Below, one piece after another: positions 24,715-48,275 of a DNA stretch of 64,000 nt; the stretch's first letter is position 1; each line of letters starts with the position of its first letter. Under the pieces are notes generated by a model. That model saw only the letters and a list, made by a program, of their open reading frames with translations. It was not told the origin of the DNA and did not search any database. The position numbers were made by a program, and so were the translations under genes. The stretch spans positions 64,001 to 128,000 of the forward strand of contig JAXSPP010000004.1 in assembly GCA_037927135.1 (NCBI GenBank), given 5' to 3'. The stretch is from Candidatus Pampinifervens sinense. GTDB lineage: Bacteria > Aquificota > Aquificia > Aquificales > Aquificaceae.

Positions 24715-26586
24715 TTATTTTTTGAAGGTCCTTCTAAGAGCTATAAGTATTGGTGGCAAGAGCCAGAGGAGGACATTGAAAGGATTGGAACCTGTAGCCA
24801 TAGAGCATCCACCACCTCCACCAGAGGAGGAGCTACTTACAGAGAAGTTGAAGATGGCATAACAGCTTTTGTCCGAATCCATACTTATGGTGCATTGGGA
24901 ACTCATTCCACAAGACTGACAATCACCGCCCCAACCGCCAAAGGTGGAGCCGGTGTCTGGTGTGGCAGTAAGGGTGACAGAAGTGTTTGGATCAAAGTTT
25001 GCAGAACATATGGTGCCACAGTTTATGCCAGCTGGATCGCTTGTTATAGTGCCAGTGCCGGTGCCAGATTTGCTAACAGTGAGCTTATACTGAAAGATGG
25101 CTACACAGGTTTTGTCTGCATTCATAACTACGTTGCATGTGGGATTATTTCCACAGCTTGAACAATCTCTGTCCCATCCTACAAAAGTAGAGCTTGGTTT
25201 GGCATTAAGAGTAGCAGTGCTATTGGTGTTGTAAACACCCACATTACCATCCACAGTGCCATTTCCGTTTATAAGCACGCGCAAAAAGTAAAAAGTTCCC
25301 GGCTGACAATCACTAATCGTTAAAGCCTTAGAGGCGTTTATCCTTCCACCAGTTATGGTCTTTCCATTGAGGGAAGAAAGAGGATCCACACCCTTCATTA
25401 TCCTACACTTTAGCTTTCTCCATGTATAATTTGGGTTTTGAGCCTTCAAAAGGGCTGCAAGGCCCGCCACATGAGGAGAGGCCATGGAGGTGCCATCAGA
25501 ATAATCATAAACATTTCCAGGCACAGTACTAAAAATATCCACTCCTGGCGCTCCCACATGGACAGAGTTCCTTCCATAATTGGAAAAGCTTGCCAAAAGG
25601 TCGTTTTTATCTGTTGCAGCAACGGAGATTATATTTTCCAAATCATAAGAAGCTGGATATAAAGGAATAAGGTCGTTGTCATTAGCTTCATTCCCAGCCG
25701 CAGCAACAAAGAGTATGCCTGCATTCTTTGCGCTTGCTATGGCATCCCTTAAAGCTTGGCTATAGCCGTAGCCTCCCCAGCTTGCGTTTATGATGTGAGC
25801 ACCCTTCTGTATGGCGTAGTTGATGCAGTCTATGGCATCTGAGGTGGTGCCTGAGCCATCGCCACCCATAAACTTAAGCGCCATTATTTTAACTTGCCAA
25901 TTTACACCCACTACACCAACGCCATTATTACCCACCGCACCGATGGTTCCAGCCACATGTGTCCCATGCCCGTTGTCATCCATAGGGTCGTTTGGATTGG
26001 GCGCACCTGTAATACAGTTTTTGCCATAATATCCAGTGGCAGGATCCTTCCACATATTATCCTTTAGATCCGGATGGTTATAGTCCACTCCAGTGTCTAT
26101 CACAGCCACCACCACACTTTGACTTCCTGTGGTAATGTCCCATGCCGATGGAGCCTGTATTTTTACAAGGCCCCAAAGGTTATTCCACAGTGGGTCGTTT
26201 GGTATTGTAGCTCTTATGGTGTATATGTAGTCTGGTTCTGCGTATTCTACATCGGGCCTTTTTCTTAGCTCCGCAATAGCTTCATGGGGAGTCTTATCTT
26301 TTGGCAACTTAAACACGTAAATGTTTAGGTTTTTAAACTCCTTTATGCTTTGAAGCCCATACTGACTTTTAACTTCTGAAAGGGCTTGCAATCTAAACTG
26401 ACATCCTTTGAACTTTACTATCACCCTATCTAAGGCATATCTTGGCGCTGGCGTGTATTGAGGTCCGAAAGATGTAGATCTATTAGTCTGCGCTTTGCTA
26501 ATTTGACTACCTTGAGAGCTAAAAAGTGTTCCCAAAATTACAGCAAAAAGCCATAATAAAAGTTTTGATGTGATTCTAATCTTCAT
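24715..26586 (-). CDS. S8 subtilisin-like serine protease with I9-like prodomain, two Cys-containing repeat domains and C-terminal sorting signal
   Basis: Triad VAVIDTG / HGTHVAG / GTSMASP; signal peptide; repeats with F.GW..DC; C-terminus SSSSSGGGGGCSM + hydrophobic helix + RR..KK. Confidence 0.92.
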   Translation of the reverse strand: MKIRITSKLLLWLFAVILGTLFSSQGSQISKAQTNRSTSFGPQYTPAPRYALDRVIVKFKGCQFRLQALSEVKSQYGLQSIKEFKNLNIYVFKLPKDKTPHEAIAELRKRPDVEYAEPDYIYTIRATIPNDPLWNNLWGLVKIQAPSAWDITTGSQSVVVAVIDTGVDYNHPDLKDNMWKDPATGYYGKNCITGAPNPNDPMDDNGHGTHVAGTIGAVGNNGVGVVGVNWQVKIMALKFMGGDGSGTTSDAIDCINYAIQKGAHIINASWGGYGYSQALRDAIASAKNAGILFVAAAGNEANDNDLIPLYPASYDLENIISVAATDKNDLLASFSNYGRNSVHVGAPGVDIFSTVPGNVYDYSDGTSMASPHVAGLAALLKAQNPNYTWRKLKCRIMKGVDPLSSLNGKTITGGRINASKALTISDCQPGTFYFLRVLINGNGTVDGNVGVYNTNSTATLNAKPSSTFVGWDRDCSSCGNNPTCNVVMNADKTCVAIFQYKLTVSKSGTGTGTITSDPAGINCGTICSANFDPNTSVTLTATPDTGSTFGGWGGDCQSCGMSSQCTISMDSDKSCYAIFNFSVSSSSSGGGGGCSMATGSNPFNVLLWLLPPILIALRRTFKK

Positions 26587-26597
26587 AACCTACTTCC

Positions 26598-26924
26598 CTA
26601 CTGTATTTTGTAAATTCTATCTGGTTCTACATACTCAATCTCTTTTCTTTCAGATAGTCTCTTTATCAGCTCTTCCTGCGATGCTCTTTTTGGTGCTTCC
26701 ACCACATACATGTTTAGGTCCTCAATAACCTTTACAAGCCTTAGTCCATACTGGTTTATTATTTCCTTCCTCTTTTCTTCTGGCACGTCCTTCTTAAACT
26801 TTATTATCAGCCTTTGAGAAGTCTTCATAGGTACTTCTTCGGTGTTTACAGGTCTGCTTGTGGCACAGCCTTGGTTAAAAAGGGCAAAGCCAAAAAAAAG
26901 GGCTAAAAGCAAGCTTTTAAACAT
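26598..26924 (-). CDS. predicted lipoprotein, stand-alone subtilase prodomain (I9/fervidolysin-prodomain-like)
   Basis: Signal peptide ending QGC; body RLIIKFK...QYGL...LNMYV...EYVEPD matches the prodomain of the downstream protease. Confidence 0.75.
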   Translation of the reverse strand: MFKSLLLALFFGFALFNQGCATSRPVNTEEVPMKTSQRLIIKFKKDVPEEKRKEIINQYGLRLVKVIEDLNMYVVEAPKRASQEELIKRLSERKEIEYVEPDRIYKIQ

Positions 26925-26926
26925 GA

Positions 26927-27445
26927 TCACCTCCTTCCATACCTTCCCATAGTTTGCCCTTGTCCTATTATATGTCCCTGCATCTTGCTTTCCACCTCCC
27001 TCCTTGTGGCACCGGGCTTTAGACCTAAGCTTTCCACATCAAGGGCATAAACCTTTATGTAATATCTATGAGTATGCCCACGAGGAGGACAAGGACCACC
27101 ATAGCCCACACGGCCAAAATCGTTAATACCTTGTTTTATACTTCCAACCTCACTCCTTTTGGGAAAGTTCTCCTGCAAACTTGTTTGGCTTGCTGGAATA
27201 TCATAAACTATCCAGTGGGTAAAGGTGCCAATGGGTGCATCTGGGTCATCCATGATAAGCACAAAGGACTTGGTATTGCTTGGCTGTCCAGACCATTTAA
27301 CTTGAGGAGAAACATCCTCCCCATCACAAGTATATTTGCGAGGTATATCTTGACCCTCTTTGAAAGGAGCTTCTACCTTCATGGCTTCCCTCCCAAGGCT
27401 GTAATTGATAAAAAGCAAAATAATAGCAAACAATACCTTTTTCAA
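26927..27445 (-). CDS. YbhB/YbcL family PEBP (Raf kinase inhibitor-like) protein, exported
   Basis: YTCDGEDVSP, DDPDAP, FTHW, GYGGPCPP, HRY; TTG start behind GGAGG. Confidence 0.9.
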   Translation of the reverse strand: MKKVLFAIILLFINYSLGREAMKVEAPFKEGQDIPRKYTCDGEDVSPQVKWSGQPSNTKSFVLIMDDPDAPIGTFTHWIVYDIPASQTSLQENFPKRSEVGSIKQGINDFGRVGYGGPCPPRGHTHRYYIKVYALDVESLGLKPGATRREVESKMQGHIIGQGQTMGRYGRR

Positions 27446-38978: not shown

Positions 38979-41156
38979 ATGTGGAGAGTGATATATACTG
39001 GCCAGAGGCCACACTATGAGAACATAGCCCTTGATAGGATCATGCTAGACCTTATGGCAGAGAATAAAATCCCACCAACAATAAGGTTTCTGCAGTTCAA
39101 GCCAGAATGTGTTCTTATAGGCTTCCACCAGGCGGTAGAACAAGAGGTAAGGCTTGAATATACTCAAAGGGAAGGTATAGAGGTGGGAAGGCGTATAACG
39201 GGCGGTGGTGCCATATACTTTGATGAAACCCAGATAGGCTGGGAGGTGATAGCCACAAAGGACCATCTTGGGGACCTAAACTACGAAGAGCTTACAAGGA
39301 AGATATGCACTGGCGTGGCAAAGGGGCTTCAAAAGCTTGGAATAAAGGCGGAGTTCAGGCCAAGGAATGACATAGAGGTGGAGGGAAGGAAGATTTCTGG
39401 CACCGGCGGAGTTTTTGAGGGCAAGGCCTTTTTATACCAAGGCACTGTGCTTATGGATTTTAACGTAGAGAGGATGTTAAAGTCCTTGCAGATACCCGTG
39501 GAAAAGCTAACCTCTAAGGGGATAAAATCTGCAGAGGACAGGGTAGAGTGGGTAAAGAGGGCTTTGGGCTATCTTCCGGAGAAGGAAAAGGTCTTTGAGG
39601 CCATACTCCAAGGGTTAAAGGAGGAGCTAAACATTGACTTCCAATGGGGAGAGCTGACCGATGAGGAGCTGAGGCTCCTTGAAGAAAAGAAGGACTACTT
39701 TAGAAGTGAGGAATGGATATACCATGTAAAGAAGGCTCCCACCGACAGCGAGATGCTCTTTGGTATATACAGGTGTCCAGGTGGAACCTTTAGGGTCTCC
39801 GCCAAGGTGGACCTTCAAAGCAAAGTCTTACAACAGATTATCATAAACGGAGACTTCTTTGTAAGGCCCCAAAGGCTCATATACGACCTTGAGGCCTATC
39901 TAAAGCATACGCCCATAAAAGATGTGGAAAAAAGGATAAGGGAGTTTTTCTCTCAAAGAGAATGGGAAGGTCTAAACCTAAGGGTAGAAGACTTTGTAGA
40001 AGCTGTCTTGTTTCCCCTTAGAAAGATAGAAGGTGTGGAACTTGGCATAGAAAAAAAAAGATTGAATAACATAATAGCCTCTATAGGAGGAGGCCTAATA
40101 GAAAACCTTCAAAAGGCAAAGGTTATGCTCCTTCCTTACTGTGCCAAGCCAAGATGGTGTGATTACAGACACCTTGACGACTGTGGTGAATGTGGTGGAT
40201 GCACCGTGGGCGATGCCTACAGGCTTGCCTACCAAAAGGGTATGATACCCATAACTATAACTTCTTTTGAACTTCTTAGAGACACCCTTCTCTGGTGTGC
40301 CCAAAATGGCTACACCTATGTAGGCCACTGCTGTTATGAGTTTTATGAAAAGAGGTATGAGATATTCAAAAGGGCTGCGGAAGAAGGTGCCAAGGGTGTG
40401 CTTTTTGACATAGTGGGAACCACATGCTACAGCCTTGGAGTGGAAGAGGAGGAAAAAGCCTATCATGGAGAGTTCACTGTGGAGCTGGATCTAATAAAAG
40501 AGGATTTATACAAGAGTCTTTCCGTTAAAGAGGATGTGGAAAAGGTAGAAAGACAAAGGGTTGACTTTGACTTCTCGCCATATCTCTTGGAATTCAAGCC
40601 TAGCTACTACAAAAAGCCAAAGGCTGTGCCTACACCAAAGGAGGATATGACGAGAACTTCTATGCAAAGGGAGGTCTTCTTAGGGGAGGCCACCATTGAG
40701 GAGAAAGCGGTAAGCTATAAAGAGGCTTTGGAGCTTCTTGCCAAATGGATAAAAGAGTCGGAAAGGCCTACCATAGTGCTTGGACCTCTTGTCTTTTGGG
40801 ACTTTGGAGAAAGAGATCTTCAAGAAAAGGCAAAGGCTGTGAGAGACCTTATAGAAAAGGTAGGAAGGTTCAACGTTAAAGTCCTTCCAGATTATAGGCC
40901 AAAGCTGAAAAAGTATGACCCTTCTGTGGAGATGGACCCACCAAACCCCCATCATGCCATCTTACATGGCAAGCATGACCTCACCATCCTTGTGGGAGTC
41001 CATTGCTACAGGACAGACTTTGTTATAAGACTTTTGAGAAAACACACGGATACAAAGATAGCAACCTTGTGTGGCCTATACGGCCATCCTACAGCCCATC
41101 TTTCCACTGCCTTTACCGATGCGCAAAAGATTGAAGACCTGATAAAGCTACTTTAG
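38979..41156 (+). CDS. lipoate--protein ligase fused to Cys-rich DUF116-like and PorD/ForD(CO_dh)-like domains
   Basis: RRITGGGAIY, RNDIEVEGRKISG (LplA core), GDFF (LplB domain), LLPYCAKP..C...CGECGGC..GHCC, C-terminal GPLVFW..PDYRPK..VGVHC..LC..GH. Confidence 0.82.
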   Translation: MWRVIYTGQRPHYENIALDRIMLDLMAENKIPPTIRFLQFKPECVLIGFHQAVEQEVRLEYTQREGIEVGRRITGGGAIYFDETQIGWEVIATKDHLGDLNYEELTRKICTGVAKGLQKLGIKAEFRPRNDIEVEGRKISGTGGVFEGKAFLYQGTVLMDFNVERMLKSLQIPVEKLTSKGIKSAEDRVEWVKRALGYLPEKEKVFEAILQGLKEELNIDFQWGELTDEELRLLEEKKDYFRSEEWIYHVKKAPTDSEMLFGIYRCPGGTFRVSAKVDLQSKVLQQIIINGDFFVRPQRLIYDLEAYLKHTPIKDVEKRIREFFSQREWEGLNLRVEDFVEAVLFPLRKIEGVELGIEKKRLNNIIASIGGGLIENLQKAKVMLLPYCAKPRWCDYRHLDDCGECGGCTVGDAYRLAYQKGMIPITITSFELLRDTLLWCAQNGYTYVGHCCYEFYEKRYEIFKRAAEEGAKGVLFDIVGTTCYSLGVEEEEKAYHGEFTVELDLIKEDLYKSLSVKEDVEKVERQRVDFDFSPYLLEFKPSYYKKPKAVPTPKEDMTRTSMQREVFLGEATIEEKAVSYKEALELLAKWIKESERPTIVLGPLVFWDFGERDLQEKAKAVRDLIEKVGRFNVKVLPDYRPKLKKYDPSVEMDPPNPHHAILHGKHDLTILVGVHCYRTDFVIRLLRKHTDTKIATLCGLYGHPTAHLSTAFTDAQKIEDLIKLL

Positions 41157-43773: not shown

Positions 43774-44958
43774 ATGAGAGTTTTGAGCGGTATGAGACCA
43801 ACTGGAAAGCTTCATCTTGGACACTATTTTGGTGTTATAAAAAACTGGATAAAGCTACAGGAAGAACATCAAACCTTTTATATGATCGCAGACTGGCATG
43901 CTCTCACCACGGGCTACAAAAAAGTTCAGGAGATACCACAGAACATAGAGGAGATGCTTATAGACTGGATTACCCTTGGTATAGACCCTAAAAAGAGTGT
44001 CCTTTTTAAACAATCGGACATAAAAGAACATGCGGAGCTTTTTCTTATATTTTCCATGATAACACCCAAGAGTTGGCTTGAATGGAACCCAACCTACAAG
44101 GATACAAAATACAACCTTTTGAGGATAGCAGACCTCAGCCTTATGTTCAAAGGTGGCATAAGGGACCTTGTGAGGACCTTTATAGCCTCTTTGCCTTATA
44201 AGGTAGAAGACTTTGAGGCCCTTGAAGAAATGCTTTTGGACAACCTTTCAGATGCCCTTATTGAGGCCCTCTTTGAAGGCCACTTGGACAAGGAAATCCT
44301 AAAAGAGCTAAATGTTTCAAAAAGAGAGTTTTACGATACGGATACTTATGGCTTTCTTGGATATCCTGTTTTGCAAGCTGTGGATATTCTCATATACAAG
44401 GCGGAGGCTGTGCCTGTAGGAGAGGATCAATTGCCACACATAGAGCTGGCAAGGGAGATAGCAAGGAGGTTCAACAGCCTATACGGTGAAACCTTTCCAG
44501 AGCCACAGGCTATGCTTACAGAAACACCAAAGCTTCCCGGCACCGATGGGAGAAAGATGAGCAAATCTTACAACAACGCCATCTATTTTGCAGACAGCAA
44601 AGAAGAAGTCCAAAGGAAGGTGATGAGCTTTTTCACAGACCCTCAAAAGCTCCGTAAAGGGGACCCAGGAAGGCCTGAAATCTGTCCTGTCTTCTTCTAT
44701 CATAAGCTCTTTAGTCCATCACAAAAGGTAGAGGAAATAGAAAGGGACTGCAGAAGCGGTAAACTTGGCTGTGTTGACTGTAAAAGGCTTATGTTTGAAG
44801 GCCTTGAGGCCTTCCTTGAGCCTATAAGAGAAAGAAGAAAGGAGGTGGAAAAGGATAAGGAGATGTTAAAAGAGGTGTTAAAGGAAGGTGCTAAAAAAGC
44901 CAGAGTTATAGCGATCAAGACTATGGAAGAGGTAAGGGAGAAGATTAGGGTGGGATGA
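43774..44958 (+). CDS. trpS: tryptophan--tRNA ligase
   Basis: SGMRPTGKLHLGH, YPVLQAVDIL, VPVGEDQ, KMSKS. Confidence 0.97.
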   Translation: MRVLSGMRPTGKLHLGHYFGVIKNWIKLQEEHQTFYMIADWHALTTGYKKVQEIPQNIEEMLIDWITLGIDPKKSVLFKQSDIKEHAELFLIFSMITPKSWLEWNPTYKDTKYNLLRIADLSLMFKGGIRDLVRTFIASLPYKVEDFEALEEMLLDNLSDALIEALFEGHLDKEILKELNVSKREFYDTDTYGFLGYPVLQAVDILIYKAEAVPVGEDQLPHIELAREIARRFNSLYGETFPEPQAMLTETPKLPGTDGRKMSKSYNNAIYFADSKEEVQRKVMSFFTDPQKLRKGDPGRPEICPVFFYHKLFSPSQKVEEIERDCRSGKLGCVDCKRLMFEGLEAFLEPIRERRKEVEKDKEMLKEVLKEGAKKARVIAIKTMEEVREKIRVG

Positions 44959-46046
44959 TCCTTTTTTTGACAGTCTTATTCTTATTGCTTATCTACATTG
45001 TCTTTTTAGAGTTATACCCTACAAAGAGGATAAAAGCCAAGAACATCAACCTTTTCCCCTCTAAGCTACCCAGCCTTTACCTCTATTCTTTTGAGATACA
45101 CCTTCATAGCCAGTTCTCCTATGATTCTTTGGGAAAGCCAGAGGACATAACAGACTCTGCAAAGTTGGAGGATATAGACTATGTGATAGTCACGGACCAC
45201 GACAAGGACCACATAAAATACTTTGCGGACCACAGGCTTATAGCCGGCGTAGAAAAGAAGGTGCTAGGAGAGGATGGTAGCATACTTGGAGACCTTCTCC
45301 TCGTAGAGGATATAAGGGTGGTGGCCCATCCCTTCAAAGAAAAGTATAGATGGAGGATGGACCTTCCAGAGGACTACCTTTTTGAGCTTATAGACCTAAA
45401 GGATGCCCTTTTTGAAAGAAAAGGTTTGGTGTTTTTCTTCCTTCCTTATATCCTAATAAGGGGCCTCTTTTCTGTAAACTGGGCCCTTGAAGCCATTAAA
45501 AAGTTAATACCTGTGGAAAGGTATGCCCTACAGTATCTTTCTATGGGTATAGAAAACCCTATAGTGGGAGGGCTTGACCATCATGTAAAGGTGTATGTCA
45601 GAGAGGTAAAAATACGGTTCCTTTTTCCACACTATAGACACAGCTTCAGGCTCATGAGGAACTTCCTTATCTCAGAAGAAAGGGTAGAGGGTAAAGAGGA
45701 TTTTCTAAAACAGCTCAAAAATGGCCATACGGTAATATCCTTCAGCAAAAAGCCCACGCTATACTGGAAGGAAGAAGGAAGGGTTAAGATATACCCTCCT
45801 GAAAGGTGTTTGTTAATTAGGTGCAGTAAAGATGGTTCAGAAGCCTACATAGGGTCTTACTTTGAGATGGAACAGGTTGGCACAAGCCTTTTTATTGCAT
45901 ATACTTATAAATTCCGATGGTCAAACTTCTACTTTGGTCTAAAGCCCCTTTTTATCTTTTTATACAAGGAGGAAAAGGGTGATGATAGTGGAAGAGATGC
46001 CTTTGCCGGAGGAGATAAAGGAGAAGATTCTTCAAAAGGTTTCTAA
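44955..46046 (+). CDS. membrane-anchored PHP-domain metallophosphoesterase-like protein
   Basis: HLHSQFSYD, VTDH, AHP, GGLDHH motifs; N-terminal TM. Confidence 0.7.
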   Translation: MILFLTVLFLLLIYIVFLELYPTKRIKAKNINLFPSKLPSLYLYSFEIHLHSQFSYDSLGKPEDITDSAKLEDIDYVIVTDHDKDHIKYFADHRLIAGVEKKVLGEDGSILGDLLLVEDIRVVAHPFKEKYRWRMDLPEDYLFELIDLKDALFERKGLVFFFLPYILIRGLFSVNWALEAIKKLIPVERYALQYLSMGIENPIVGGLDHHVKVYVREVKIRFLFPHYRHSFRLMRNFLISEERVEGKEDFLKQLKNGHTVISFSKKPTLYWKEEGRVKIYPPERCLLIRCSKDGSEAYIGSYFEMEQVGTSLFIAYTYKFRWSNFYFGLKPLFIFLYKEEKGDDSGRDAFAGGDKGEDSSKGF

Positions 46047-46218: not shown

Positions 46219-46565
46219 TGCCTTGGAATGTGATCGTCAAAAAAAAGTTTAGCTGGGCCCATTTTTTGACAGATTACCATGGTGCGCCAGAACCTGTGCA
46301 TGGCCACACATGGATTGTAGAGGTGCATATAAGGGTGGACAAGGTGGATGCGGGTGGGATGGGTATTGACTTTTTAGAGATAGAAGAGTTTTTAAAGAAG
46401 CTCCTTCCAGACTATGTGCTTTTAAATGATATTGTGGATTTTTCTCCAAGTGCAGAAAATATGGCAAAATGGATATACGAAAGGGTAAAAGAAAGGTTCC
46501 CCACAGTCTCCAAAGTTTTAGTTTGGGAAAAGGAAGACTGTGGGGCTGAGTATTGGGAAGATTAA
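46218..46565 (+). CDS. 6-pyruvoyl-tetrahydropterin synthase family (QueD/PTPS fold; ExxHGH type)
   Basis: FSWAH, EPVHGH, IDF, SAENMA, VWE. Confidence 0.88.
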   Translation: MPWNVIVKKKFSWAHFLTDYHGAPEPVHGHTWIVEVHIRVDKVDAGGMGIDFLEIEEFLKKLLPDYVLLNDIVDFSPSAENMAKWIYERVKERFPTVSKVLVWEKEDCGAEYWED

Positions 46566-47017
46566 CAGCTTACACAGTTCTTTTCTTTTGCTTCCCTTGC
46601 CTTCTTTGCCATTTCTGGGTCATAGGCCTTGCCTTGCCAAAGCATTTGATAGACTACTTCGTAAGTGCTTTCTGCAAGCTCTGTCAGCTCTTTGAAGAGC
46701 TTTTTAAACCCTTCGCTTTTGTGAGACTCTTCATGATCTTCCAAACTTCTCCAAAAGGTGATTATAAGCACTTCCCTATTCTTTAAAGGATGCTCTGTAG
46801 TCTGCCCTGCAGTGGAACCTTCCAAAGAAACACCGCCAGTATTGAGAGCCACAAATCCACCATAAAAGCCTGTGTCTGAGTGGTAGGTCTTTACATACTC
46901 ACAAAGGTAAGCCACCTTTTCCGCCACATCGTCCAAGGTGACCCCTTCTTTTAACACCACGTAGTTTATGTTAACTATGGCATCTTCTGGCACATCCACT
47001 ATATAGTTTCCATACAT
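46562..47017 (-). CDS. sulfur oxygenase reductase (SOR)-like single-domain protein, dimeric alpha/beta barrel
   Basis: TFWRSLEDHEESH motif, upstream Cys..H..GF.G, downstream YEVVY; strong AGGAGGT SD before ATG 47017. Confidence 0.65.
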   Translation of the reverse strand: MYGNYIVDVPEDAIVNINYVVLKEGVTLDDVAEKVAYLCEYVKTYHSDTGFYGGFVALNTGGVSLEGSTAGQTTEHPLKNREVLIITFWRSLEDHEESHKSEGFKKLFKELTELAESTYEVVYQMLWQGKAYDPEMAKKAREAKEKNCVSC

Positions 47018-47114
47018 GGTAGCACCTCCTTTTAAGATCATTCCGATATTCTAATATACTTAAAGCTTAGAAAATAAACCATGTTCTAAATCACAGAGTA
47101 AAAGAGGCCTTCAA

Positions 47115-48275
47115 TCAATAGCCCTCGTAGGCTCTCTCGTAAAGTTTGTATATATCCTCCATGGTAGGTTCTACTGGATTTATGGGAAAGAGGCCCCTTG
47201 AAAGCATGTAGGTATCCTCTGTAAGCCTCTCTATCTTTTCCCTCTCCACTCCAAGCTCCTTTAGGCTTAGCCTCAGGCCTACTTTTTCAAGGAACTTTTC
47301 AAGGGCCTTCACCGCCATATGCGGCTTTGGCTCATAGCCCATAAGCTCTGCAAAGAGGGCATATTTTTCTGGATTGCCTTTATAGTTGAAGTCTGTAACA
47401 GCTACACCAAGGGCAGCAAGGCCTTCTGCATGGGCTATGTGCGGATAGTGGGCAGATACGGGATGTTCCATGCCGTGTATAAGGGCAACCCTTTTCCTGT
47501 CTATGGCTATGCCTGCCAGCATGGCAGCGTAGCTCATGTAGGACCTTGCCTCTAAGTTCTCCGGATCTTCTATGGCCACTGGTAGCCACCTTCTTATAAT
47601 CTGTATGGCCCTTATGGCCAGTTCTTCCGCAAAGAAGTTTGAAAGCCTGTTGGTAAGGGATTCAAGGGCGTGCATGAGTGCATCTATGCCCGTTAGGGCT
47701 GTGAGCCTTCTGTCCATACTTACTGTGAGGGAAGGGTCTATTATGGCTACCCTAGGATAGTTCAAGGAGTGGGATATGACCATCTTTTCCTTTCTTATGG
47801 GGTTTGACAGGACAGAATACCTATTTACCTCGCTTCCCGTTCCGGCGGTGGTAGGAATGCATATGACAGGCCTGTTTAAAAAGGGTATGAGTCTTGGCCC
47901 TTCTGGATAGTTCACATAGTCCCACGCATAGCCTTCATTGGAGGATACTATGGATATGGCCTTGGCAGAGTCCAAGCTACTCCCACCACCGAGGCCTACA
48001 ATGTAGTCTATCTTCTCTCTTACCACCATTTCACTGGCAAGGTTTACAGCCTTGTCTGTGGGATTGGGTTCTATCTGGTCAAAGACTAAAACCTCTTCTG
48101 CGCCGTTTTTCTTTAGAGACTCTATCACCCTGTAAAGGGCACCGTTTTCCTTAGTGCTCCTTCTGCCTGTAACTACAAGCACCCTGTAGCCAAAGCGTCT
48201 TCCTACTTCACCAACCCTATCTACGGAACCGATTCCAAAGATAACTTCTACAGGCAAATAAAAGTCAAAGTTCAT
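47115..48275 (-). CDS. iron-containing alcohol dehydrogenase
   Basis: GGGSSLD, PTTAGTGSE, DALMHALE, HGMEH..H. Confidence 0.93.
   Translation of the reverse strand: MNFDFYLPVEVIFGIGSVDRVGEVGRRFGYRVLVVTGRRSTKENGALYRVIESLKKNGAEEVLVFDQIEPNPTDKAVNLASEMVVREKIDYIVGLGGGSSLDSAKAISIVSSNEGYAWDYVNYPEGPRLIPFLNRPVICIPTTAGTGSEVNRYSVLSNPIRKEKMVISHSLNYPRVAIIDPSLTVSMDRRLTALTGIDALMHALESLTNRLSNFFAEELAIRAIQIIRRWLPVAIEDPENLEARSYMSYAAMLAGIAIDRKRVALIHGMEHPVSAHYPHIAHAEGLAALGVAVTDFNYKGNPEKYALFAELMGYEPKPHMAVKALEKFLEKVGLRLSLKELGVEREKIERLTEDTYMLSRGLFPINPVEPTMEDIYKLYERAYEGY

Follow-up and report, generated by a model that had tools for sequence, protein, structure and literature searches.

Within a window of 64,000 nucleotides (nt) from Candidatus Pampinifervens sinense (Aquificaceae; contig JAXSPP010000004.1, positions 64,001 to 128,000), here meaning the whole stretch of DNA that was analysed, one minus-strand gene encodes a small protein that resembles half of a sulfur oxygenase reductase (SOR). 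An earlier, sequence-only reading had proposed that this protein is a single-domain relative of SOR that retains the catalytic cysteine and the His-His-Glu iron ligands of that enzyme. A relationship of this single-domain protein to the N-terminal half of SOR, the catalytic one, is supported by Pfam, by NCBIfam, by searches of Protein Data Bank (PDB) sequences and by hhalign. The Cys and His-His-Glu equivalents, which align with those of SOR, are near-invariant in the protein's family (119 to 121 of 121 sequences). Homology to SOR with a retained site is, in our judgement, highly probable.

The gene and its conserved residues

The open reading frame (ORF) consists of 151 codons and a stop, with a good ribosome-binding site before it, and its translation contains all of the motifs that had been quoted for it (VNINYVVLKE, LC39EYVKTYHSDTGFYG, TFWRSLEDH95EESH99, YE120VVY and a terminal CVSC). 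The residue numbers assigned earlier to C39, H95, H99, E120, C148 and C151 are likewise correct. A longer reading of 159 amino acids (aa), from an ATG at 47041, was rejected because the N-termini of the homologs align at M1. Since its N-terminus carries no hydrophobic, signal-like stretch, the 151-aa protein, of about 17 kDa, is probably cytoplasmic.

A simple scan for promoters and terminators around the gene performed no better than shuffled sequence. In RNA data, a hot-spring metatranscriptome (X1) contained one 991-nt contig over window positions 46361-47351, with 61 differences; 27 of those listed lie within the ORF, and 22 of these fall at third codon positions of the minus-strand frame. 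The raw reads of other RNA runs gave no match at the locus in two runs and 5 reads in a third. We take the contig to be a relative's sequence in an RNA library, which fits a conserved coding gene of a related strain; as weak evidence, it is not proof of transcription.

Residues were counted in a close set, composed of the query and 120 listed homologs (121 sequences), and in a wider set of 125, which includes many fragments and for which only the sequences covering a column were counted. We found that C39, H46, W89, H95, E96 and H99 are present in 121 of 121 close sequences, and E120 in 119, with one Asp and one gap. In the wider set, C39 is retained in 66 of 78 sequences, H95 in 81 of 93, H99 in 84 of 95 and E120 in 76 of 87, and a cysteine stands at position 115 in 73 of 89. 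That cysteine occurs in 108 of the 120 close sequences that cover its column, and Ala in all 12 sequences of the Aquificaceae clade. An internal pair of the type Cys101-x2-Cys104, as in SOR, was present in none of the 120 close homologs.

The sequence-only reading had also suggested that the C-terminal CxxC of the protein may replace the internal CxxC of SOR. This proposal was not supported. No more than 5 of the 121 sequences end in the CxxC, which is therefore a local quirk of the lineage rather than a family feature; a single terminal Cys is found in one further sequence, 7 of the 12 Aquificaceae-clade sequences are without the CxxC, and 6 have neither. A second cysteine is evidently dispensable in the Aquificaceae clade.

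Features of the SOR-like gene, in window coordinates
Feature	Position	Strand	Basis
Coding sequence of SOR-like single-domain protein, 151 aa, stop included	46562..47017	-	ORF translation; 292 homologs; N-terminal alignment at M1
Shine-Dalgarno-like GGAGGTG	47023..47029	-	read from sequence; 5 nt upstream of ATG at 47017
Cys39 codon, paired with SOR Cys31 (essential Cys)	46901..46903	-	hhalign exact, hmmsearch one column off; 121/121; codon checked by hand
H95-E-E-S-H99, paired with SOR His86-x3-His90 (iron ligands)	46721..46735	-	phmmer, hhalign, hmmsearch; each His 121/121
His95 codon	46733..46735	-	checked by hand
His99 codon	46721..46723	-	checked by hand
Glu120 codon, paired with SOR Glu114 (iron ligand)	46658..46660	-	phmmer and hhalign alignments; Glu in 119/121; codon checked by hand
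Ala115 codon; Cys in most family members, paired with SOR Cys101	46673..46675	-	family columns and hhalign
C148-V-S-C151, lineage-specific C-terminal CxxC	46565..46576	-	5/121 close homologs

Sequence relation to SOR and predicted fold

According to PMC7398979, the iron of SOR is ligated by His86, His90 and Glu114; activity is undetectable in the H86A, H90A, E114A and C31A mutants and about 10-fold lower in C101A and C104A. We found that the top Pfam match of the small protein is SOR (PF07682; E 7.4e-5, 22.2 bits), with residues 42-125 lying on profile positions 31-117, followed by the antibiotic biosynthesis monooxygenase family (ABM; PF03992) at E 1e-3. When the single protein was compared with PDB sequences by phmmer, it matched the SOR of Sulfurisphaera tokodaii (6m35, E 4.6e-4). 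Similarly, a profile of 47 family members retrieved eight distinct SOR sequences at E<0.01 (best 1.1e-4; residues 14-127 on SOR 6-122) and nothing other than SOR below that threshold. The other matches were triosephosphate isomerases only (best E 0.015), which we take as spurious, and no ABM or IsdG chain appeared at E<=1 in this search of PDB sequences.

Profiles of the two families were also compared. The SOR profile was built from a single Aquificaceae SOR, for which 37 relatives were collected and 24 aligned; this protein, the sole true SOR found in the Aquificaceae, is 100% identical to a protein named Aquifex aeolicus SOR. Aligned by hhalign, the 47 family members and the 24 SORs matched with a probability of 87.2% (E 3.9e-6) over 112 columns, family positions 8-127 on SOR 4-139. 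This alignment pairs C39, H95, H99 and E120 with the SOR-invariant residues C36, H104, H108 and E132 (Aquifex numbering), which are Cys31, His86, His90 and Glu114 in Acidianus numbering. By alignment, then, H95, H99 and E120 take the places of the iron ligands and C39 that of the essential cysteine. The same alignment pairs the family's usual Cys115 with SOR Cys101 and also lines up the GF, T-x-W and H-E motifs, and the hmmsearch alignment agrees with it for the His-His-Glu set. About 10 of the 26 invariant residues in the N-terminal half of SOR coincide with positions that hardly vary in the family (C, GF, T, W, H, E, H, C, E). The SOR contexts that the sequence-only reading had cited (KVCMVTARHPGFVG, TFWKDWKDHEEMH and WEPIYE) were all found in the phmmer and hmmsearch alignments. 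Together, these sequence comparisons indicate that the resemblance to SOR is more than chance and that the homology is significant but remote.

The AlphaFold2 model (47 sequences) had a mean predicted local distance difference test score (pLDDT) of 89, a predicted template modelling score (pTM) of 0.79 and a beta-alpha-beta-beta-alpha-beta topology, with strands at 14-22, 51-58, 82-89 and 115-124, helices at 28-49, 92-100 and 102-112, and an extra C-terminal helix at 134-147. In this model C39 lies in the middle of helix 1, helix 2 bears H95 and H99 at a distance of one turn, and the last strand bears E120; all four occupy the same elements, in the same chain order, as the aligned SOR residues. 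The modelled fold itself is the generic, ferredoxin-like one of ABM and dimeric alpha+beta barrel (DABB) proteins. Foldseek (probability 1.00) placed IsdG (1xbw) first, with E 5e-6 and 20% identity, followed by many ABM proteins. In the VIA fold search of 48,161 chain representatives, SnoaB came first (Z 14.0, root mean square deviation (rmsd) 1.8 A, 97 residues); SnoaB, RslO4 and other ABM proteins scored Z 12-14, and IsdG Z 10.2. SOR (6qpa) ranked 24 (Z 11.2, rmsd 3.1 A), its 128 residues being the longest alignment among the rows shown. Because the top matches are ABM proteins and IsdG, and SOR reaches only rank 24, the fold alone does not single out SOR.

The possibility, raised from the sequence, that the protein forms a homodimer was borne out by prediction. 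Modelled as two copies with two iron ions, the pair scored 0.86 (0.85, 0.87 and 0.86 in the three runs) against 0.00 for the best of three controls. The runs shared at least 85% of contacts, the pLDDT of the partner was at least 84, and strand 120-126 was placed against 56-64 of the other copy, as in the usual ABM dimer. Residues 39-40, 95-96 and 99-100 touch other chains in the model; as iron and the second protein copy are not told apart there, these contacts were given no weight for a metal site. Of the proteins used to calibrate this score, without small molecules and on other alignments, 20 of 30 that had been solved as pairs and 1 of 23 solved as single chains reached the mark. Because many ABM dimers have been solved, the result is possibly one of memory, and it may reflect likeness to those solved dimers rather than evidence on this protein. 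In predictions, the protein thus has the ferredoxin-like alpha+beta fold with homodimer barrel that marks ABM/DABB proteins, and its Pfam ABM match (19.5 bits) lies under the gathering cut-off of 23.1.

Distribution and gene neighbourhoods

A word-seeded protein search (E<=0.001) returned 292 homologs of 83-265 aa, which form two groups, an Aquificaceae group at 80-89% identity to the query and a large group from sulfur-oxidising Pseudomonadota at 57-65%. The named sources of the latter are Thioalkalivibrio, Thiohalobacter, Thiobacter, Thioalkalispiraceae, Thiotrichales and Chromatiales; Thiohalophilus, Sedimenticola and Sulfurisoma are further named holders, and the nearest relative of the window protein is a Hydrogenobacter sp. 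record (93% identity). By a pattern scan of one genome per species, at least 578 loci or species genomes carry the family, the range of which is largely limited to sulfur oxidisers, both heat-loving ones and those of soda lakes. Its members are named 'ligand-binding protein SH3', 'antibiotic biosynthesis monooxygenase family protein', 'heme-degrading monooxygenase HmoA', 'quinol monooxygenase YgiN' or 'hypothetical' in databases, and the ESM Atlas returned no clusters but those of the family itself, to which it gives the automatic name 'putative ligand-binding protein SH3'. The family is tightly conserved, uncharacterised and without correct annotation.

When 50%-identity representatives were searched exhaustively, 125 proteins matched at E<=0.001 (45 at 1e-10), none of them a full-length SOR. 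This set includes shorter, distant members at 27-45% identity, one distant cluster of which holds a Sulfurisoma sediminicola protein, and distant forms of 196-199 aa in which a rhodanese domain stands at the N-terminus (Pfam E 8e-12 and 4e-11), the named ones coming from Thermoplasmatales metagenome bins. Longer or fused relatives of at least 266 aa were not found at E<=0.001, which is weak evidence.

A quick maximum-likelihood tree with 87 rows separated an Aquificaceae group (17 rows, support 94) from a proteobacterial one (62 rows, support 92); loci at which the ORF caller missed the target, or with a target outside 120-230 aa, were left out, and one long outgroup branch is misplaced. Copies in records labelled Acidobacteria, Halobacteria archaeon, Spirochaetia and Jiangellales nest within one or the other group (L004, L022, L039, L063, L067, L068). 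These are probably mis-binned contigs or mislabelled bins, not cases of gene transfer.

We then compared the occurrence of the small protein with that of full SOR. The source genome (1.55 Mb, 99.96% complete) has SoxB and no SOR, its sole PF07682 match being the small gene itself at 20.9 bits. Nor was SOR found in five proteobacterial holders of the small protein. Among 81 Aquificaceae genomes, the family profile detected the small protein in 47 (37 of 57 good-quality ones), whereas SOR above cut-off is present in one. The holders span 8 of 12 genera, one genus having none in its 8 genomes, and 34 of the 81 genomes showed no match at E<=1e-5. Because SoxB is present in 72 of the 81 anyway, its co-occurrence does not discriminate. 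In the order of Thioalkalivibrio sp. ALE10, 40 of 55 genomes hold the small protein and 14 hold SOR: 12 have both, 28 the small protein alone, 2 SOR alone and 13 neither. These data indicate that a half-size relative with the active-site residues is far commoner than SOR itself. Mutual exclusion of the two was rejected, and they are not alternatives, because 12 of the 14 SOR-bearing genomes hold both.

Two further observations concern SOR-bearing genomes. In the sole such Aquificaceae genome (G015, L091 1486-1952, minus strand), a frameshift divides the small gene into pieces of 88 aa and 66 aa; this single case could be a pseudogene or a sequencing error. In six genomes of the Thioalkalivibrio order (G100, G102, G115, G118, G122, G124), two SOR-family genes score about 415 and about 215 bits, which suggests a second, divergent group of SOR paralogs.

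Neighbourhoods were compared at 80 loci with a simple ORF caller, which found the target in 77; gene clusters seen in at least two loci were named and singletons left unannotated. We found no conserved operon among the 77. In 9 Aquificaceae loci, as in the window, a same-strand iron-type alcohol dehydrogenase gene is found upstream, with a tenth, proteobacterial locus having such a gene nearby, and QueD is convergent downstream in 9 loci. In Thioalkalivibrio, a divergent regulator gene, an ArsR-rhodanese fusion, adjoins the gene in 8 loci, with a Mrp antiporter downstream. In 5 loci ATP sulfurylase follows the gene in the same orientation, about 0.5 kb away, and a response regulator lies upstream in 8, part of them with a PAS histidine kinase. 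DegP/HtrA directly precedes the gene in 9 proteobacterial loci, part of which also have Hsp20 and DnaJ-type genes. A DMSO-reductase-family molybdoenzyme and its iron-sulfur and DmsC-type partners are encoded nearby in a few loci; identification of these genes as SoeABC was not supported, as no NCBIfam cut-off was reached. The sulfur links are thus real but scattered, and the link to stress genes is at least as frequent.

Other features of the window were recorded. Between a TrpRS-type tRNA synthetase gene and QueD lies a 363-aa ORF (44955-46046, plus strand) with a hydrophobic N-terminus and no Pfam or NCBIfam match. At 47742-47796, inside the alcohol dehydrogenase gene, metatranscriptome X1 contigs of 31-60 nt pile up to a word depth of 2600, probably at a conserved or repeated word common to other organisms. 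At 38979-41156 (plus strand), a 725-aa fusion joins an LplA/LplB-like lipoate-protein ligase (Pfam E 7.8e-45) to a C-terminal domain matching 'CO dehydrogenase beta / acetyl-CoA synthase epsilon' (E 3.5e-33); every NCBIfam ligase model was below cut-off. Special lipoate ligases accompany the sulfur-oxidising Hdr-like system. At 24715-26930 (minus strand), a 623-aa fervidolysin-like subtilase is preceded by a separate 110-aa ORF that corresponds to the fervidolysin N-terminal prodomain alone and may be a stand-alone propeptide or inhibitor.

Candidate function and comparison with known systems

Our tentative interpretation, which we hold at somewhat under even odds, is that the protein is a dimeric, single-domain relative of the SOR catalytic half that would act as a non-heme-iron enzyme on sulfane sulfur with O2. 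In this mechanism, two copies would pair through their beta-sheets and so form the alpha+beta barrel that SOR makes from two fused halves, with two active sites per dimer. His95 and His99, on helix 92-100, and Glu120, on strand 115-124, would hold one non-heme iron per subunit, as His86, His90 and Glu114 do in SOR. Cys39, on helix 28-49, would carry the substrate as a persulfide or polysulfide, as proposed for SOR Cys31. The iron would activate O2, and the bound sulfane sulfur would be oxidised, the likely product being sulfite (and thiosulfate). We infer iron binding, the role of Cys39, the use of O2, the substrate and the products alike, and the parts differ in strength: iron binding is slightly more probable than its opposite, and oxidation of sulfane sulfur falls a little short of an even chance. 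A broader proposal, which we consider doubtful, is that the family is a free-standing, minimal SOR module, a cage-free dimeric non-heme-iron sulfur oxygenase that would convert cytoplasmic sulfane sulfur to sulfite with O2 in hundreds of bacterial sulfur oxidisers, and that it could resemble the single-domain ancestor of SOR before duplication and fusion.

A number of observations weigh against a SOR-like enzyme. All similarity scores are modest: the Pfam SOR match lies under its gathering cut-off of 25 bits, the sole NCBIfam match, the SOR equivalog NF047630, scored 20.8 bits against a cut-off of 400, and the hhalign probability is not above 95% and was only 11% when a single SOR sequence was used. 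The hmmsearch alignment shifts C39 one column from SOR Cys31, and the window protein, with Ala115, is without the second cysteine. In the structural comparison, the best matches were ordinary ABM proteins and IsdG, not SOR, which is one half of the outcome that the sequence-only reading had named as refuting its proposal. The protein also has N18, W89 and H99, with the Trp-to-His spacing of 10 seen in IsdG. As to context, no operon is conserved, the gene's neighbours in the window are the iron-type alcohol dehydrogenase, DksA and QueD, 9 proteobacterial copies follow DegP/HtrA, and the frequent presence of both genes in one genome means that the small protein is no simple stand-in for SOR. The protein scores below both curated cut-offs (PF07682 and NF047630), has 151 aa and one beta-alpha-beta-beta-alpha-beta unit where a SOR subunit has about 300 aa and two ferredoxin-like halves fused together, and lacks the Cys101-x2-Cys104 pair. 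For these reasons its annotation as SOR is not warranted, and 'SOR-like single-domain protein' is a fair label.

Part of this evidence would suit a protein that does not turn over substrate but senses or carries sulfane sulfur or iron, or serves in stress; its Cys/metal site would bind a persulfide or metal and so report or buffer reactive sulfur species. The adjoining ArsR-rhodanese and response regulators (8 loci each, with the PAS kinase in part), the DegP gene before it in 9 loci and the Hsp20/DnaJ-type genes in part are in keeping with such a role, as are a small, single-copy gene without a fixed metabolic operon and the presence of full SOR alongside in most SOR-bearing genomes. Pfam, however, detected no DNA-binding or signalling domain in the protein, the conserved residues are exactly those essential for SOR catalysis, and an identity of about 60% between phyla suits an enzyme active site at least as well. 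We regard a sensor or carrier as unlikely.

An ordinary ABM-family enzyme without a sulfur role, either a cofactor-free aromatic or quinol monooxygenase or a heme oxygenase of the IsdG/HmoA type with His99 as heme ligand, is also improbable in our estimate. The leading fold matches, the Pfam ABM match, the predicted canonical ABM dimer, the names 'HmoA', 'YgiN' and 'ABM family' given by source databases and the Asn/Trp/His residues all fit such an enzyme. The last of these do not discriminate, because SOR has the same pattern. The family profile, moreover, finds eight SOR sequences in the PDB and, at E<=1, no ABM or IsdG chain, the family occurs mostly in sulfur oxidisers, and rhodanese fusions exist. 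No role is known in IsdG or cofactor-free ABM enzymes for the invariant C39, H95 and E120, which counts further against an ordinary ABM enzyme.

Least probable, and by our estimate quite improbable, is that shared DABB ancestry with a convergent or chance placement of the four residues explains the SOR match and that the family's role is unrelated: the marginal scores (20-25 bits, hhalign probability 87%), the lack of a conserved sulfur operon and the 34 Aquificaceae genomes without a match, though SoxB is nearly general there, would agree with it, but four independent methods all choose SOR and nothing else, and the invariant SOR residues recur on the family's near-invariant columns.

Until now SOR has been regarded as rare and as invariably cage-forming. 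We found no description of a half-size SOR homolog in the literature, including the available portions of PMC7398979, PMC4835899, PMC6382920 and PMC6335251, in a search that did not extend to supplements and subscription journals. A survey of 75 Thioalkalivibrio genomes (PMC6382920) reported SOR in three strains and a complete sulfide-to-sulfate pathway reconstructable for only six. Because its SOR thresholds, as stated there, were >30% identity and >50% query coverage with a SOR query, that survey would miss the small protein. If the protein does bind iron and oxidise sulfane sulfur, it would fill a gap among the enzymes in models of how bacteria oxidise sulfur, provide a small, tractable system for the SOR mechanism and bear on the evolution of SOR.

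Of the known systems, SOR (PF07682; PDB 2cb2, 6m35, 6qpa) is the closest family by sequence, the match being to its N-terminal, ferredoxin-like half. The equivalents of Cys31, His86, His90 and Glu114 are kept, most family members also have a Cys at the Cys101 position, SOR is cytoplasmic, as the small protein probably is, and both occur in sulfur oxidisers. In contrast to SOR, with about 310 aa, the 151-aa protein has no second domain, and the window protein lacks the internal Cys pair. The family has a long conserved loop at 59-81, with an S-x-EGS motif, and a C-terminal helix, neither of which is present in SOR. SOR assembles as a hollow sphere of 24 subunits, whereas the family protein is predicted as a dimer, the one assembly that was modelled.

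The ABM/DABB proteins (PF03992; SnoaB 3kg0, ActVA-Orf6 1lq9, YgiN 1tuv) share the fold (Z 10-14, rmsd 1.8-2.8 A, 94-106 residues), the size class and the predicted sheet-to-sheet homodimer. The enzymes SnoaB, ActVA-Orf6 and YgiN are cofactor-free, whereas the family keeps the His-His-Glu set and the Cys, has a Pfam ABM score below cut-off and gives no ABM profile match. IsdG, IsdI and HmoA resemble it in the first Foldseek match, in the Asn/Trp/His residues with their Trp-to-His spacing of 10 and in the 'HmoA' names; the heme-degrading triad of IsdG is Asn6/Trp66/His76, according to PMC4835899. They differ in that no sequence-profile match was found, in the family's extra invariant Cys39, His95 and Glu120 and in its sulfur-oxidiser range. 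Finally, the persulfide dioxygenases (ETHE1/PDO type) have an unrelated, metallo-beta-lactamase fold and are not known to share sequence with the family. They may nonetheless be a working analogue, though not a relative, of the kind of reaction proposed here: according to PMC6060420, persulfide dioxygenase, a mononuclear non-heme iron enzyme, makes sulfite out of sulfur plus glutathione.

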